In this document: positions 51,572-56,002 of the stretch, in pieces
Position numbering within the stretch: position 1 is the first letter of the stretch
Layout of the letters: every line of letters begins with the position of its first letter
Assembly: GCA_965223855.1 (NCBI GenBank)
Contig: CBDCXM010000009.1
Span: forward strand, 736,001 to 800,000
Direction of reading: 5' to 3'
Length of the DNA: 64,000 nucleotides
DNA from: Candidatus Multivoradales bacterium
Lineage (GTDB): Bacteria > Acidobacteriota > Thermoanaerobaculia > Multivoradales > JAHEKO01
The notes under the pieces: generated by a model
The model's database searches: none
What the model was told of the DNA's origin: nothing
Seen by the model: only the letters and a program-made list of their open reading frames with translations
Made by a program: the position numbers and the translations under genes

Positions 51572-53467
51572 TCAGTTGGTCTCTTCGATCGGTTCGGCCG
51601 TGCCGCCGAAAACATCGAGCGCGGCCTGGACGGTGGGGTGGTCGAGGGAGTCGGCGGCGGTGGGCGCCTGCGACTCGCTGTCGGTGGTCGGGGACTCGCT
51701 CTCTGAAGACGGGGCCCGACTGTCGGAAGACGGTGGCCGGCTTGCGGTCTCGCCGTTGGCGGCCGGAGCGGTCTCGATCCGCCACGTCGCATCGTCGCCG
51801 AACGCCTCGTGCAGACACGCCTCGAACGCCTTGCGGTTGGCGTCGCGCCGAAGCGCGGTGGCGAGCCAGCCGTCGCCCTCGCCGGTGGTCAGCACCAGCG
51901 CCCGGTCGACGAAGTCGATCTTCTCGACCTCGTCGAGATGAGCGGCGATCACCTGTCGGCGGGTGCGGATCAGCTCGACGAAGCGTCCGAGATCGCCGGT
52001 CGCGTTGGCGGTGGCTCCGGTCGTCGCCGGTTCGGGCTGCGACGAAACGTCGGCGTGCCGCTCGCTCTCGAGCACCTCGGACTCAGACGCCGCGGGCTCG
52101 GGCACCACAGGTTCAGGCGCCTCAGGTTCAGGTGGCGCGCTCAGGGGCGGCTCGGCCACCGTCGGTCGGTCGTCGGCCGACCGTGCGGGCGCGCTGACGG
52201 CGGCAGGACGCTCGTCCTTCGCGGGCACGGCATCCGCTCCCGATGCCGCTCCAAGTGCCGCTGCCGCCTCGCGGCCGCCGCCGGGCGAGCTCTTCCCGCC
52301 GGCTTGTCCCTCCCCTTGCGGCGCGGCGGGCCCGACTCCACCGGACGACTCTCCCCCGAGCAGCGCTTCGAGGCTCGTCAGCCGCGGGAGCTCGGCGGCC
52401 CGCAGCCAGGCGATCTCGACCGCGAGCGCTGCCGACTCACTGCGCCGCACCGCCTCCTCGCCGGCGAGCAGCAGGTGCAGCAACCGCAGCACGGTCTCGT
52501 AGCCGGTGGACGTGCCGAGGGCGCGCGCCGCCTCGGCCTCTTCGTTCGGCAGCTCGACGGTCGCCGGATCGCCTCCGAGCGCGAGGTGGAGGACGTCGCG
52601 ACAGTAGCCGAGGAAGTCGCCGTAGACGTGTCGCGGGTCGCGCCCGCGTCCCTCGACGTCGGCGACGATCTCGACGACGCCGCTGCGGTCGCCGCGCACG
52701 ATGGCGTCGAGCAGGGTGTGGTGAAGCGAGGTGTCGGCGCCGCCGAGCACCCGGATCGCGTCCTCGTCGCGGATCGCTCCCGAGCCGTAGGTCGCGAGCT
52801 GATCGAGGAGCGCCACCGAGTCGCGCACGCTGCCTTCGCCGGCGCGGGCGATCATCATCAGCGCCTTGTCGCCGACCTCGATCTCCTCGGCGTCGGCGAG
52901 TCGCCGCAGGTGGGCGACGAGCTGCGGATGCGGGACGCGCCGGAAGTTGAACTCCTGGCAACGCGACAGGATCGTCGCCGGCACCGCCTCGAGTTCGGTG
53001 GTGGCGAAGATGAAGACCAGGTGCGGCGGCGGCTCTTCGACGATCTTGAGCAGCGCGTCGAAAGCGTTGCGCGACAAGCGATGGACCTCGTCGAGCACCA
53101 CCACCTTGTAGCGCCCCGACACCGGCTTGTACTTGAGGTTCTCGGTCAGCTCGCGCACCTGCTCGACCTTCGAGTGGGTCGCGGCGTCGATCTCGAGGAT
53201 GTCGAGGTTGGCGCCGGAGCCGAACTCGCGGCAGGTCTCGCACTCGTTGCACGGCCCGTCGGCCATGCCGCGCTCGCAGTTGAGCGCCTTGGCGAGGATC
53301 CGCGCGACGCTCGTCTTGCCGACCCCGCGGATGCCGGAGAAGAGATACGCCGAGGCGATCCGTCCTTCGGCGAGCGCGTTGCGCAGCGCCGTCACCACCG
53401 GCTCCTGGCCGACCACCGCCTCGAAGTCGTGCGGCCGCCACTTGCGGGCTAGGACTTGGTAGGCCAT
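51572..53467 (-). CDS. dnaX: DNA polymerase III gamma/tau
   Basis: LARKWRP, GIRGVGKTS, DEVH, TILSRC, GSVRD. Confidence 0.97.
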   Translation of the reverse strand: MAYQVLARKWRPHDFEAVVGQEPVVTALRNALAEGRIASAYLFSGIRGVGKTSVARILAKALNCERGMADGPCNECETCREFGSGANLDILEIDAATHSKVEQVRELTENLKYKPVSGRYKVVVLDEVHRLSRNAFDALLKIVEEPPPHLVFIFATTELEAVPATILSRCQEFNFRRVPHPQLVAHLRRLADAEEIEVGDKALMMIARAGEGSVRDSVALLDQLATYGSGAIRDEDAIRVLGGADTSLHHTLLDAIVRGDRSGVVEIVADVEGRGRDPRHVYGDFLGYCRDVLHLALGGDPATVELPNEEAEAARALGTSTGYETVLRLLHLLLAGEEAVRRSESAALAVEIAWLRAAELPRLTSLEALLGGESSGGVGPAAPQGEGQAGGKSSPGGGREAAAALGAASGADAVPAKDERPAAVSAPARSADDRPTVAEPPLSAPPEPEAPEPVVPEPAASESEVLESERHADVSSQPEPATTGATANATGDLGRFVELIRTRRQVIAAHLDEVEKIDFVDRALVLTTGEGDGWLATALRRDANRKAFEACLHEAFGDDATWRIETAPAANGETASRPPSSDSRAPSSESESPTTDSESQAPTAADSLDHPTVQAALDVFGGTAEPIEETN

Positions 53468-53498
53468 CGAGCGGGAGGGGAGGCGAGCGGCCCCAGCT

Positions 53499-53616
53499 GC
53501 CGACGAAGGGCTCCGACGATCTGCGGCACTCGGCCGGAGCGCCTTATCGCTGCTCCCTTCCGGGCCTGACGAGGTTCAGCGACCGCCGATGCACAGGGCC
53601 CGAGCCCTTCGTCGGC
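53499..53616 (-). ncRNA. ffs: SRP RNA (4.5S)
   Basis: Core GTCAGGCCCGGAAGGGAGCAGC; closed by a 15-bp inverted repeat; upstream of dnaX. Confidence 0.93.
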
Positions 53617-53630
53617 TCCTGGGGAGGTAG

Positions 53631-53659
53631 ATGGTACGTCGGTGGGGGGTGGGGTGCAA
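53631..53659 (-). promoter_or_regulatory. Sigma-70 promoter for ffs
   Basis: TTGCAC-N17-TACCAT. Confidence 0.65.
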
Positions 53660-53701
53660 TGGGGAGGGGAGGCCCGGTGAGTCTCAGGCCCCCATTGCGA
53701 C

Positions 53702-53872
53702 GCGAGAAGGCGGGGATTCGGTCCTGCGTTCGCAGGACCGCTGCGAGCTGTGTTTCTGCGCGCGCCTCCGGCGGCCTTCGGCCGGCAGGGCCAGCTTCGC
53801 TGCCCCTGGGCGCCCGGTGTCTTCATTCTCGCCGGGCTCATCGCCCGGCGAAGCCAGGGTTCGAACCCCTGG
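53702..53872. repeat. tRNA-linked structured element, long form (host tRNA-Ser CGA)
   Basis: Degenerate tRNA 3' copy, GCGTTCGC hairpin, GCGAGCTGTGTTTCTG, insert, inverted T-arm CCAGGGTTCGAACCCCTGG. Confidence 0.8.
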
Positions 53873-53913
53873 TGTGCTGCTCATGAGCTGAGCTAGCGGG
53901 ATCAGGTTGGAAA

Positions 53914-54011
53914 TGGCGGAGAGGCAGGGATTCGGTCCTGCGTTCGCAGGACCGCTGCGAACTGTGTTTCTGGCACGCCTTCGGCGTGCAAACCAGGGTT
54001 CGAGTCCCTGG
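53914..54011. repeat. tRNA-linked structured element, short form (host tRNA-Ser CGA)
   Basis: 53914-53934 identical to 54053-54073; same core; inverted T-arm at 53993-54011. Confidence 0.85.
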
Positions 54012-54052
54012 TGAGCCACCGACAAGCCGAGTCGGTGGCGTCAGAAAGAAAT

Positions 54053-54142
54053 TGGCGGAGAGGCAGGGATTCGAACCCTGGGACCGCTTGCACGGTCAAC
54101 GGTTTTCGAGACCGCCCCGTTCGACCACTCCGGCACCTCTCC
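54053..54142 (-). tRNA. tRNA-Ser (CGA)
   Basis: GGAGAGG acceptor stem, anticodon loop CT-CGA-AA, long variable arm, TTCGAAT, encoded CCA. Confidence 0.96.
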
Positions 54143-54211
54143 TGCTGGTCGAAAGTCGCGGCTGGGCCGCGAGGAGGGGGATTGTATACGGAGGCGAACG
54201 CGAGGGCACGC

Positions 54212-54706
54212 TCAGTCCGGTTCGCTCTGCTCGGACCTCATTGGGCGCTCCGAGTGAAGCAGGTACGGACCACCCTCTGCACACACGATCGTGTTGATCT
54301 CTCCGTCTTCTTCTCCGAGCAGGGGTTGAAAGGCCGGGCCGGAATAATTGCCTCTTCCTGGCTCAGCCGTTCGTATCGAGAGAAAGAAGTCCAGCGGGAG
54401 GTCGACCAGCTCGACGATTCTCAACTCGCCGAGCTCGTAGGGCCATCCCATGAGGGTCGTGCACTCGGTGTCGTCGCCCGAGTTCCAGATGCCGAGCATA
54501 GGGCTCTGGCCCGTCCAGCACCAGAACACGGCGCTCACTCTGGAAGCGTCTTCGTGCCAGATGAGGTTGTCGACTCGATCGCATTGTCGGAGGGCGTCCA
54601 GGAGGCTGTGGGTAGCGCCTTCACCGGCCGCCGGGCTCTGGCGCGTGGAAGCCGATGCGCAAAGCGGGAGCGATAGCGAGAGAAGGAGTGCCAGGGCGGT
54701 CTTCAT
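54212..54706 (-). CDS. Hypothetical secreted protein
   Basis: Signal peptide MKTALALLLSLSLPLCASA; atypical codon usage. Confidence 0.5.
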   Translation of the reverse strand: MKTALALLLSLSLPLCASASTRQSPAAGEGATHSLLDALRQCDRVDNLIWHEDASRVSAVFWCWTGQSPMLGIWNSGDDTECTTLMGWPYELGELRIVELVDLPLDFFLSIRTAEPGRGNYSGPAFQPLLGEEDGEINTIVCAEGGPYLLHSERPMRSEQSEPD

Positions 54707-54862
54707 CTGGATTGAGGGCCAAGCGCGTTGTCTTCGCGCCGGAGTTTTTCTCGCTGGATTCATGGCCCGATGGGGGGGTCGACTCCCTCCTTCGGGTACC
54801 GTCGCTCATCCTGGGTGCCAGGGTTGCCGCTTTGCCGGTCGTCACCGGAGGACCAGTGCTTC

Positions 54863-55027
54863 GGCGAAGAGGGAGGGATCCGTTTGGCGTTCGCCAAACG
54901 GAAGGCGAACTGTATTTCTGGCGCGCCTTCGGCGGCCTTCGGCCGACTGTCCAGCAAAGCTGACCAGAGTGCCGGTGCTTTCATTCGCCGGGCTCACCGC
55001 CCGGCGAAGGAGGGTTCGAATCCCTCC
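54863..55027. repeat. tRNA-linked structured element, long form (host tRNA-Ser GGA)
   Basis: tRNA 3' copy 18/20, shared core and insert, inverted T-arm GGAGGGTTCGAATCCCTCC. Confidence 0.82.
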
Positions 55028-55100
55028 CTTCGGGCATCGTCGCTCATCTTGAGCGCTGGTGTTGCCGCTCAGCTGGTCTTCACCGGAGGACCAGGACGTA

Positions 55101-55197
55101 CGGAGAGGGAGGGATCCGTTTGGGCGTTCGCCCAAACGGAAGGCGAACTGTCTTTCTGGCGCACCTCCGGTGCGCAACCGAGGGTTCGAATCCCTCC
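55101..55197. repeat. tRNA-linked structured element, short form (host tRNA-Ser GGA)
   Basis: tRNA 3' copy; 55177-55197 is a 21/21 inverted copy of the host T-arm region. Confidence 0.85.
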
Positions 55198-55258
55198 GGG
55201 CGCGCTGCAGGCCATCCAAGGAACTTGGCGCTGCAGCCGTGGCAGGGTCAAGAACTCT

Positions 55259-55348
<90 letters not shown>

Positions 55349-55366
55349 GGGGATCTGGCAAGGAGC

Positions 55367-55834
55367 TCAGCCCGTGTCGGGCTGACGACCTCTGAGGTCG
55401 CAGAAGAAGGAGCGTAGCAAGTCGCCGCACTCTTCGGCCAGTACCCCGGCGGTCACTTCGAGGCGGTGGTTGAGGCGCGGGTCGCGCACCAGATCGCCGA
55501 GGCTGCCGCAAAAGCCCGCCTTGGGGTCGGCGGCGCCGTAGACGAGTCTCGCCACTCGCGCGTTGACGAGCGCGCCGGCGCACATGGCGCACGGCTCGAG
55601 GGTGACGTAGAGGGTGGTGTCGAGGAGCCGCCACCCCTCGGTCGCGGCGGCCGCCTGCTCGAGCGCCAGCAGCTCGGCGTGGCCGAGCGGGTCGCCGGCG
55701 GTCTCGCGCCGGTTGTGGGCCTCGCCGATGACGATGCCGTCGCGCACGACGACGGCTCCGATCGGCACCTCACCGATTGCCGCGGCGCGGCGCGCAAGGC
55801 CGAGACAACGCCGCATTGCGGCAATATCGTCCAT
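55367..55834 (-). CDS. tadA: tRNA adenosine(34) deaminase
   Basis: EVPIGAVVV, HAE, TLEPC.MC, DPKAG, LNH. Confidence 0.95.
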   Translation of the reverse strand: MDDIAAMRRCLGLARRAAAIGEVPIGAVVVRDGIVIGEAHNRRETAGDPLGHAELLALEQAAAATEGWRLLDTTLYVTLEPCAMCAGALVNARVARLVYGAADPKAGFCGSLGDLVRDPRLNHRLEVTAGVLAEECGDLLRSFFCDLRGRQPDTG

Positions 55835-55887
55835 TCCGGGAGCTTGTCACGGCGGGCCGACCGCGGGCGGATCGGCCCGCTTGCAAC

Positions 55888-55917
55888 TTGACCCAACTGC
55901 GATCGGCACGGTACTTT
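55888..55917 (+). promoter_or_regulatory. Candidate sigma-70 promoter of the rpmH operon
   Basis: TTGACC-N18-TACTTT. Confidence 0.5.
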
Positions 55918-56002
55918 TCGGCGTTCGCGCGTCCGGCTCCGGGCGCGCTCCCCAACACAGCGTTTCCGTTAGCAGAAGCTGACTTTCAGATAGGACAGTG
56001 TC

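Follow-up and report, generated by a model that had tools for sequence, protein, structure and literature searches.

Structured repeat units behind tRNA genes of an acidobacterial lineage share the layout of the RtT repeats of Escherichia coli

Introduction

RtT repeats behind tRNA genes of Escherichia coli were first described around 1978 and, to our knowledge, have gone for decades without an accepted origin or function. Another known class for comparison is that of the cis-mobilisable remnants (CIME) at the ends of islands that integrate into tRNA genes. The RtT family itself (RF00391) comprises 178-bp repeats at the tyrT/tyrV locus of E. coli (gene rttR). RtT RNAs have been detected on Northern blots in A. 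pleuropneumoniae, and for E. coli a release of rtT RNA from tRNA transcripts and a link to the stringent response are reported (PMC4986893).

Here we analyse a window of 64,000 nucleotides from Candidatus Multivoradales bacterium (contig CBDCXM010000009.1, positions 736,001 to 800,000), in which an earlier sequence-only reading had pointed to structured elements behind two tRNA-Ser genes.

Two arrays behind tRNA-Ser genes

In the window, tRNA-Ser(CGA) and tRNA-Ser(GGA) are each followed by one short and one long non-coding module, four in all. Both tRNA genes are on the minus strand, so all four elements lie downstream of the tRNAs and in tRNA orientation. The parts of a module are a spacer, an arm antisense to the T-arm, a conserved motif flanked by two co-varying hairpins (hp1 and hp2), and a duplicate of the tRNA 3' end spanning mid T-loop to CCA. 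Scores marked R1 refer to our covariance model of the core.

53507 to 53605, minus strand: SRP RNA gene (ffs), conserved neighbour downstream of the CGA array (Rfam RF00169, 66.9 bits)
53699 to 53874, minus strand: module CGA-2, long form with an insert of about 70 nt (R1 69.5 bits; alignment)
53913 to 54013, minus strand: module CGA-1, short (R1 113.1 bits; two alignments)
53914 to 53933, minus strand: direct repeat of the tRNA 3' end in CGA-1
53934 to 53953, minus strand: hairpin hp1 of CGA-1
53957 to 53972, minus strand: motif CAGAAACACAGTTCGC of CGA-1
53973 to 53989, minus strand: hairpin hp2 of CGA-1
53993 to 54011, minus strand: left arm, or inverted T-arm, of CGA-1
54014 to 54052, minus strand: spacer of CGA-1, with the hairpin GCCACCGAC/GTCGGTGGC (read from the sequence)
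54053 to 54142, minus strand: tRNA-Ser(CGA), host of the first array (ARAGORN; Rfam tRNA 55.1 bits)
54776 to 54860, minus strand: truncated third unit of the GGA array (read from the sequence, outside R1 scoring)
54861 to 55029, minus strand: module GGA-2, long form (R1 89.4 bits; alignment)
55097 to 55199, minus strand: module GGA-1, short (R1 111.6 bits), with a 21/21 inverted T-arm copy at 55177-55197
55259 to 55348, minus strand: tRNA-Ser(GGA), host of the second array (ARAGORN; Rfam tRNA 58.1 bits)

Module CGA-1 starts 40 nt past the end of tRNA-Ser(CGA), the direct repeat of CGA-2 is degenerate, and the truncated third unit consists of a spacer resembling the other inter-module spacers and a degenerate left arm (GAGGGAGTCGACCCC). 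The succession of a short and a long element behind both genes, as described in the sequence-only reading, is borne out by the ARAGORN and Rfam gene calls and by an alignment of the four copies, which also reproduces the order of parts given there and the co-varying stems GGTCCTGC/GCAGGACC and CGTTTGG(G)C/GCC(C)AAACG. Its 21/21 inverted match is correct as read from the sequence. The CCTYCGG cap that it assigned to one hairpin exists, but closes a loop of 3 nt, and a UUCG tetraloop was accordingly rejected.

The 16-mer GCGARCTGTNTTTCTG occurs exactly four times in the 4.52-Mb genome, every time within these elements, and a fifth match with one mismatch falls in coding-looking sequence. The only ORFs across the units are overlapping six-frame ORFs in GC-rich DNA. 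A plus-strand terminator (a hairpin plus TGTGTTTCTG) was flagged in three of the four elements by a loose scan and is treated as an alternative pairing. ARAGORN also calls a 'tRNA-Val(aac)' at 55116-55205 on the plus strand, inside the short GGA element except for its last 6 nt. This call rests on the inverted T-arm; the Rfam tRNA model RF00005 has no plus-strand match at 55116-55205, and a plus-strand tRNA-like gene or tmRNA piece was rejected, acceptor pairing and Rfam support both being absent. Public contigs aligned to the stretch are fragmentary and match parts of the arrays without any difference; their joints have short sides and probably derive from other organisms of the metagenome.

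Distribution in the source genome and the family

In the source genome (G000), arrays are found behind all four tRNA-Ser genes, and simpler forms lie behind six further tRNAs for Glu, Gly, Tyr, Leu and Gln. Within 130 nt downstream, 10 of the 46 tRNA genes have an inverted copy of at least 12 nt (at most one mismatch) of their own last 24 nt. As controls, the upstream flanks of the 46 genes contain no inverted copy of at least 10 nt, and mismatched pairs of tRNA and flank yield 2 of 230 at 12 nt or more. Inverted tRNA-end copies downstream of tRNA genes exceed chance.

R1 located the core in 17 of the 45 family genomes. A same-strand tRNA lies upstream of 36 of the 38 matches (Ser cga 11, gga 8, gct 9, Gln 5, SeC 2, Arg 1), and one of the other two adjoins a decayed tRNA-Ser fragment. 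First units among these matches mostly begin 56-63 nt past the tRNA. An exact 16-mer search of 40 relatives returned a true copy only in the congeneric genome G003, and a pattern scan of one genome per species gave five loci, two of them true (in a Thermoanaerobaculia MAG and a 'Ca. Multivoradales' MAG) and three, in Deinococcota, Dehalococcoidia and Methylobacter, rejected as chance matches.

Covariation and predicted fold

In an alignment that was itself fitted to the R1 model, hp1 is paired in 96.8% of cells, with 8 of 9 pairs changed on both sides, and hp2 in 82.8%, with 5 of 5 pairs changed on both sides. None of 500 shuffles reached the observed values, and sliding the partners by 1-3 columns left 29-42% paired. 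The covariation extends beyond the locus in the window.

About 60 nt past the preceding CCA, a unit opens with an arm complementary to the duplicate at its end, so that a closing helix of 10-13 bp is possible, which would enclose the two co-varying hairpins and the conserved single-stranded motif. At least 10 pairs join the left arm to the direct repeat in 26 of 32 unique copies. The inverted T-arm hairpin, with all positions paired in 14 of these 32, is less well conserved. Inverted copies in the source genome are free of mismatches over 20-21 nt, and this stretch takes in the T-stem 5' strand. The match to this strand is superfluous for the closing helix and would fit fresh templating better than selection. 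The constant spacing of about 60 nt and the conservation of the motif are suggestive of recognition by some factor.

Evidence on the strand is mixed. On the tRNA strand, hp1 mismatches comprise seven T.G versus no A.C in 30 copies evaluated, the mismatches stemming from a few related lineages. Variation of the motif between GTTCG and GCTCG favours the strand opposite the tRNA, and the folding energy is lower on that opposite strand in 27 of 32 copies.

Host matching, turnover and exchange

The proposal that both arms track the host tRNA stands for most of the material. Behind Ser, Gln, SeC and Arg tRNAs alike, the direct repeat has the sequence of the host 3' end; it invariably begins in the T-loop, at (TT)CGAATCC, measures 21 to 52 nt and can extend past CCA. 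There are exceptions, however: in G002, G023 and G055 the left arm corresponds to a tRNA other than the host, and in G004 one direct repeat deviates from its host.

Comparison of empty and filled sites reveals turnover between relatives. In G003, both tRNA-Ser genes of the orthologous tRNA-tRNA-ffs-dnaX locus lack a unit, and in G002 each of them is followed by one unit, the CGA unit having a different core. Copy number lies between 0 and 4, and decayed copies occur within arrays; G047 has four identical 159-nt units and a 28-nt partial repeat. Arrays of the source genome are mosaics of core variants. A near-identical hp1 and motif occur behind tRNA-Gln in G045 and behind tRNA-Ser(GCT) in G003, and the units of G002 and G023 combine a donor-type interior with host-type repeats. 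The inverted T-arm behind Gln(ctg) in the source genome is a hybrid, and G001 shows an inversion junction, GAGGG-TTCGAAT-CCTGC, in a fragmented metagenome assembly.

The constant scaffold and the turnover agree with the suggestion of a non-autonomous mobile element moved in trans, but the search for an enzyme identified none. The Y1 transposase (PF01797) shows no association across the 45 family genomes, and none of the five tyrosine recombinase matches in the source genome adjoins the arrays. No longer autonomous copy enclosing an ORF was found, and for the guide-like RNA proposed alongside there was neither a pointer to guide function nor an associated gene. The one true island in the source genome, behind tRNA-Arg(ccg), has a 440-aa ORF with a Phage_integrase-domain match beside the tRNA and is of a different design.

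Comparison with RtT and other known systems

RtT is the closest known family in layout and closing helix, and the comparison with tyrT drawn from the sequence has held up. In both, tandem units occupy the tRNA trailer in tRNA orientation and end in the tRNA 3' end from T-loop to CCA, a hairpin with a G-N-A-type loop directly precedes the repeat, and copy number differs between strains. The antisense arm at E. coli tyrT lies about 59 nt past the previous CCA by our count, and the closing helix of arm and copy is drawn in the Rfam consensus. In K-12, 13 RtT copies score above the cut-off (the gathering score of RF00391 is 45 bits). The direct repeat is the host tRNA 3' end in the 11 copies examined (Ser, Lys, Pro, Tyr); for Lys and Pro, the left arm is an imperfect match to it. 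The serX array varies in size, with at least 80% of the K-12 arrangement in one place in only 2165 of 5426 complete E. coli genomes.

In contrast to RtT, the antisense arm of the acidobacterial units can extend to a complete inverted T-arm of 20-21 nt, and the long forms carry the insert of about 70 nt. RF00391 scores E. coli units at 133-137 bits and finds no match in the source genome at E up to 1, R1 gives E. coli units just 13.5-14.3 bits, and a profile of the cores alone is not significant against the E. coli tyrT locus (E = 1.2). Given these results, common descent with RtT is not established. The acidobacterial units have the same-strand position downstream of a tRNA, the 3'-end copy and the closing helix, and stay below the gathering score. 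Scanning the region with Rfam at E up to 10 returned tRNA, SRP RNA and sub-threshold noise and no family that explains the elements, with no RtT among 25 matches in window positions 53000-56000. In the freely accessible articles on RtT-like units, we found no description of tRNA-matched arms, mobility or phylum-wide spread.

The Xanthomonas sRNA sX4 (RF02223), whose model comprises tRNA-Ser and a downstream stretch pairing with the T-stem 3' strand, matches at both tRNA-Ser loci with 30.8 and 19.9 bits, below its cut-off of 70 and driven by the tRNA itself. With CIME, the units share a direct tRNA 3'-end repeat from the T-loop, tandem accretion and freedom from genes, but differ in their co-varying structured interior, antisense arm, uniform small size and lack of a linked integrase gene; nor do they fit an integrase att scar, since the repeat is present but the 140-240-nt units hold no gene fragment. 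A MITE was ruled out because the inverted arms copy the host tRNA and the duplication (21-52 nt) is the tRNA end itself, and REP/REPIN elements with RAYT because PF01797 occurs in 12 of 17 genomes with the core versus 25 of 28 without. Folded single-strand sites of the integron attC or CTX type resemble the units in idea alone.

Discussion

We give about an even chance to the reading that the elements are tRNA-linked repeat modules of the RtT type. On this reading, recombination between the copies of the tRNA end multiplies, removes and relocates the units, and they are probably transcribed together with the tRNA. The units are non-coding segments of about 140-240 nt and stand in tandem in the 3' trailer. 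Because the tRNA end and its copy bracket each unit, recombination could delete, amplify or circularise units and leave the tRNA unharmed. Circles or ectopic conversion might go on to seed units at further tRNAs whose 3' ends are similar, or to replace units already there, in which case host recombination would suffice and no element-encoded enzyme would be needed. The left arm may stay complementary to the duplicate through selection for the closed fold, or through template switching between nearby inverted repeats. By analogy with E. coli RtT, transcription would run from the tRNA through the array, and cleavage at each CCA would release a structured small RNA; the co-transcribed RNA that the sequence-only reading had offered as its alternative fits this precedent. 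If a single crossover brought a unit of the Ser type into a tRNA gene for Gln, SeC or Arg, a chimeric tRNA would result, and simple homologous recombination therefore does not easily explain new hosts with both arms already matched.

A competing explanation is a dedicated site-specific enzyme acting in trans on a non-autonomous element. It would be either a tyrosine recombinase with its crossover in the T-loop or, as for integron attC and the CTX phage, a recombinase that uses folded single-stranded DNA, with the closing helix mimicking the tRNA-gene duplex. The start of the direct repeat coincides with the T-loop sublocation that T-loop integrases reportedly use, as Williams is said to have described in 2002. 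The hybrid inverted T-arms suggest crossing-over within the loop, although the G001 junction comes from its fragmented assembly; hp1 is frequently capped by a sequence of the GCGAAGC type and accepts T.G on just one strand, and motif and spacing are conserved. We nevertheless regard this explanation as rather unlikely, with no ORF in or adjoining the units, no long gene-bearing copy, few tyrosine recombinase matches in the genome, a lone true island of another design, and a variable repeat length with extension past CCA, as expected under homology-driven exchange. Unlikely to a similar degree is a host-beneficial cis-acting RNA of the tRNA trailer, serving processing, termination, insulation or stress signalling and passed on by vertical inheritance with gene conversion between loci. 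The unvarying tRNA orientation, fixed distance and co-varying stems would suit it, as would the simple forms behind six further tRNAs and what PMC4986893 reports of rtT RNA in E. coli. The empty congener sites, the varying and decaying copies and the presence of the core in a minority of family genomes argue against it, and an arm antisense to the 3' end of its own tRNA seems more harmful than helpful for tRNA folding.

It is decidedly unlikely, in our estimate, that RtT-type modules form one ancient and widespread class of non-autonomous mobile elements in Gammaproteobacteria and Acidobacteriota, which would land at the T-loop with both arms templated from the tRNA by an undescribed mechanism on the near-palindromic T-arm (a recombinase on folded single strands or programmed template switching). 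Scars (attL/attR) of decayed islands integrated successively into tRNA genes would leave tandem direct repeats of the tRNA 3' end, and an ordinary integrase island does lie behind tRNA-Arg(ccg); they are very unlikely all the same, since random deletion remnants would not yield units of uniform size with one co-varying core across many loci and genomes, and gene fragments are absent inside the units. The scaffold with two target-matching arms also recalls a guide RNA that would make the tRNA gene the target of an RNA-guided transposase or nuclease. We consider this extremely unlikely, given that no gene is associated, that Y1 transposase genes show no association with the core, and that the right arm is a literal whole tRNA end with CCA and not a short guide.

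For annotation, RtT-like elements produce false tRNA calls, such as the 'tRNA-Val' here, and their arrays can mislead island and att-site calling. The RtT design is now found in a distant phylum, in an acidobacterial lineage where congeners differ by units gained or lost, different tRNA species have exchanged cores and the arms follow the host. With this occurrence, turnover, exchange and host matching, RtT looks like one case of a general class and not an enterobacterial oddity, and the question of mechanism becomes testable in E. coli, with its thousands of genomes and full genetics.

Repeat units behind the two tRNA-Ser genes

Alignment of the four elements located downstream of both tRNA-Ser genes, in the orientation of the tRNAs, confirms the common design proposed by the sequence-only reading and fits the order of parts that it described, including an insert of about 70 nt in the long forms. 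In genome coordinates, the window corresponds to G000:C9:736001-800000.

Features of the tRNA-Ser loci in the window
53507-53605, minus strand: SRP RNA gene (Rfam)
54053-54142, minus strand: tRNA-Ser(CGA) (ARAGORN and Rfam)
about 54776-54860, minus strand: truncated third unit, behind the long GGA element
55259-55348, minus strand: tRNA-Ser(GGA) (ARAGORN and Rfam)

Read on the tRNA strand, each unit starts with a 37-67-nt spacer that harbours a GC-rich hairpin. The spacers next to the two tRNAs are 40 and 60 nt long; those between modules measure 37 and 67 nt by the part coordinates. Next come the left arm, a reverse-complemented T-arm, then a hairpin (hp2), the motif CAGAAA-N-ACAGTTCGC, and a second hairpin (hp1). 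The unit closes with a duplicate of the tRNA 3' end, from mid T-loop along the acceptor strand up to CCA. The inverted match of 21/21 positions at 55177-55197 is correct. The 16-mer motif is found at four places in the 4.52-Mb genome, all of them these elements, with one extra match (one mismatch) in coding-looking sequence.

An open reading frame unrelated to the units (54212-54763, minus strand; 183 aa, or about 164 aa from an internal ATG) has a signal-peptide-like start and sits after the truncated third unit, between the GGA array and tRNA-Ser(CGA). It is missing at that position in the related genome G003, whose two tRNAs stand 50 nt apart. The 90-nt 'tRNA-Val(aac)' called by ARAGORN at 55116-55205 (plus strand) is unsupported by the Rfam tRNA model and lies, except for its last 6 nt, inside the short GGA element; elements of this kind can inflate tRNA counts. 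The Rfam family sX4 from Xanthomonas gave weak matches at 53969-54153 and 55207-55362 (minus strand; 30.8 and 19.9 bits). Since the sX4 model comprises a tRNA-Ser and a downstream stretch that pairs with the 3' strand of the T-stem, Xanthomonas may have related trailers.

Units behind other tRNA genes

The family extends beyond these two loci to all four tRNA-Ser genes of the genome under study (G000), and simpler modules stand behind other tRNAs. The tRNA-Ser(GCT) gene is followed by three units with the same core as the window elements, and tRNA-Ser(TGA) by at least three units of about 172 nt with a different core, whose arms match their own tRNA (GCGGG/CCCGC stem, CCCCTCC acceptor strand). 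The simpler modules, consisting of an inverted copy of the last ~20 nt of the tRNA including CCA, one hairpin, and a short CGAATCCC, are present behind Glu(ttc) (four 100-nt units), Gly(tcc) (two), Tyr (two), Glu(ctc), and Leu(caa), while a truncated long-form unit lies behind Gln(ctg).

Within the 130 nt that follow the gene, 10 of 46 tRNA genes repeat at least 12 nt of their own last 24 nt in inverted form, with no more than one mismatch; the 46 are the 50 ARAGORN calls less the false Val(aac), a 'Pro' call of 86 nt, and two calls whose anticodon was undetermined. As controls, the upstream flanks contain an inverted copy of at least 10 nt in 0/46 genes, and mismatched tRNA/flank pairs give one of at least 12 nt in 2/230. 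No tmRNA gene was called by ARAGORN in the assembly, which is 92% complete.

The tRNA-Arg(ccg) locus (L062, G000:C9:528300-533741) contains an ordinary 5.2-kb island, in which a 440-aa ORF with an internal Phage_integrase-domain match adjoins the tRNA; behind the displaced original tRNA 3' end, whole T-arm included, comes a module of the simple inverted-copy kind. At tRNA-Leu(taa) (L063, G000:C9:3055281-3057953), two genes with identical ends lie 2.6 kb apart.

Structure and covariation

Covariation was assessed on 33 matches (30 distinct) to R1, a covariance model of the unit core trained on eight tRNA-strand copies; the alignment is fitted to the model and so biased towards structure. In this model-fitted alignment, standard pairs fill 87.5% of cells compared to 65.3% in shuffles, both sides change in 17/21 pairs, and 0/500 shuffles equal the observed values. 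The covariation of the stems extends outside this locus. Sliding the partners along leaves 29-42% paired. For hp1, 96.8% of cells are paired and both sides change in 8/9 pairs; the corresponding values for hp2 are 82.8% and 5/5. The left arm and the direct repeat form at least 10 pairs in 26/32 unique copies; the local hairpin resembling a T-arm, the less well conserved of the two pairings, is fully paired in 14/32.

The signs as to which strand folds are mixed. In favour of the tRNA strand, mismatches of hp1 on it comprise seven T.G, coming from a few related lineages, and no A.C among the 30 copies evaluated. In favour of the opposite strand, that strand folds more stably in 27/32 copies, which may be an effect of base composition only, and the frequent motif change GTTCG/GCTCG would be a wobble on that strand only.

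Distribution among related genomes

At E values up to 0.01, R1 matches 17 of the 45 family genomes and 8/20 genera; G005, an unpublished genome among the 45, has no match. The loci concerned gave 52 matches, of which the best 38 were examined; of the 14 set aside, one of 33 bits spans a tRNA and 13 score no more than 25 bits, almost all of them antisense to tRNA genes. In this search of relatives, suggested by the sequence-only reading, a same-strand tRNA lies upstream in 36/38 examined matches: Ser(cga) in 11, Ser(gct) in 9, Ser(gga) in 8, Gln(ctg) in 5, SeC in 2, and Arg(tcg) in 1. The distance from the tRNA to the first unit is mostly 56-63 nt. One of the two orphans (L045, G019:C74, minus strand) adjoins the fragment of a decayed TGA-like tRNA-Ser, ~100 nt upstream of position 1605 in the locus. 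Fragment and unit are joined inside the inverted T-arm; the fusion sequence, GTGGG-ATTCGGA-CCCAG, looks like a deletion between T-stem and left arm.

The idea of a constant scaffold with host-matched arms proved right, the direct repeat being the host tRNA 3' end in nearly all examined matches. For tRNA-SeC, even the unusual T-loop is reproduced in the direct repeat, and the left arm bears the matching variant. The exceptions are a direct repeat of another tRNA's type in G004 (L051) and left arms of another tRNA's type in G002 (L023), G023 (L058), and G055 (L043). One genome per species was also scanned with a pattern, which returned, besides three chance matches, two true named ones, in a Thermoanaerobaculia MAG and a 'Candidatus Multivoradales' MAG, from which the type-1 core (that modelled by R1) appears confined to this acidobacterial lineage.

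Gain, loss, and exchange of units

The order tRNA-Ser(GGA), tRNA-Ser(CGA), ffs, dnaX is conserved across the genus, and the orthologous locus is found both empty and filled. G003 has no unit behind either tRNA-Ser gene. G002 has one unit per tRNA, that of CGA combining a 'TGA-type' core, a left arm mismatched to its host, and a 52-nt repeat extending 31 nt beyond CCA. G001 has one unit, behind GGA, and G047 has four identical 159-nt units followed by a partial repeat of 28 nt. The GCT array of G000 mixes a CGA-unit-like hp1 variant with a GGA-unit-like one, and near-identical hp1 and motif occur at tRNA-Gln of G045 and tRNA-Ser(GCT) of G003. To judge from these empty sites, tandem copies, mixed arrays, and common cores, units disappear and multiply, and they are exchanged among loci and also among tRNA species.

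On contig C287 of G001 (L028/L035; ~1400-1500 of L028), the tRNA-Ser(CGA) gene is inverted with respect to tRNA-Ser(GGA), and a different contig holds ffs. At the junction lies a hybrid T-arm (GAGGG-TTCGAAT-CCTGC) that resembles the product of recombination inside the loop between two inverted T-arm copies. As the inversion could be an assembly artefact of this fragmented 740-contig MAG, we take the junction only as a lead.

Possible mechanisms of unit turnover

Recombination between the repeats bracketing a unit would delete, amplify, or circularize units and leave the tRNA intact. We infer that such recombination accounts for the empty sites, the identical tandem copies, the repeats of variable length with a fixed T-loop start, and the donor-type interiors between host-type repeats. 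By analogy with the RtT repeats of E. coli, the tRNA and the array are probably transcribed together, and the array is probably cleaved at every CCA.

Recombination less readily explains how new tRNA species are colonized without a chimeric tRNA, or why fresh copies bear a perfect 20-21-nt inverted T-arm, and the fixed ~60-nt spacing and conserved motif hint at a recognizing factor. A dedicated recombinase that moves the units therefore remains a live rival. Its gene was not found: Y1 transposase genes are present in 12/17 genomes with the core versus 25/28 without it, and none of the five tyrosine recombinase matches in G000 adjoins an array. Of the mobile element put forward by the sequence-only reading, turnover and spread are supported but the dedicated enzyme is not; its guide function also found no support. 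The Y1 transposase domain (PF01797) has 16 matches in G000, mostly in open frames of ~300-340 aa (range 246-840), and may belong to a multi-copy element; two matches (C9:526261 and C9:3053612) are no more than about 2 kb away from tRNA loci.

Comparison with the RtT repeats of E. coli

The design of the units is that of RtT (RF00391). In the E. coli tyrT/tyrV trailer, where Rfam calls four units (133-137 bits), each unit ends with AATCCTTCCCCCACCACCA, the tRNA-Tyr 3' end, and contains GGGGAAGGAT, the antisense of that end, 59 nt (our count) past the preceding CCA. The antisense arm pairs with the tRNA-end copy in the RF00391 consensus structure, and a short hairpin with a G-N-A-type loop directly precedes the repeat in RtT as in many copies here. 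E. coli K-12 has 13 RF00391 copies above cut-off, hosted by tRNA-Tyr, tRNA-Ser (serX, three units), Lys/Val clusters, and tRNA-Pro. The direct repeat is the host tRNA 3' end in the 11 copies examined (nine at Ser, Lys, and Pro loci plus tyrT/tyrV units); the match of the left arm to the repeat is exact at Tyr and Ser but imperfect at Lys and Pro. Host-matched arms on a constant scaffold are thus already a property of a catalogued family. The serX array also differs in size among strains, with at least 80% of the K-12 arrangement in one place in only 2165/5426 genomes.

RtT members near tRNA-Asn and tRNA-Lys genes of A. pleuropneumoniae, with Northern signals, are described in PMC4986893, which cites Bosl and Kersten 1991 for the release of RtT from tRNA transcripts. 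A preprint (10.1101/2024.07.17.603846) reports, without explaining it, that 'mobilome' coverage of the tyrT-rttR region rises under stress.

Membership of RtT by sequence fails: RF00391 has no match in G000, R1 scores 13.5-14.3 bits on the E. coli units, and a core-only profile reaches E = 1.2 against the E. coli locus. The likeness is one of layout, and common descent is without sequence support. In this sense of a common design, the units are a variant of RtT, a family already known but unexplained, and the acidobacterial variant is new.
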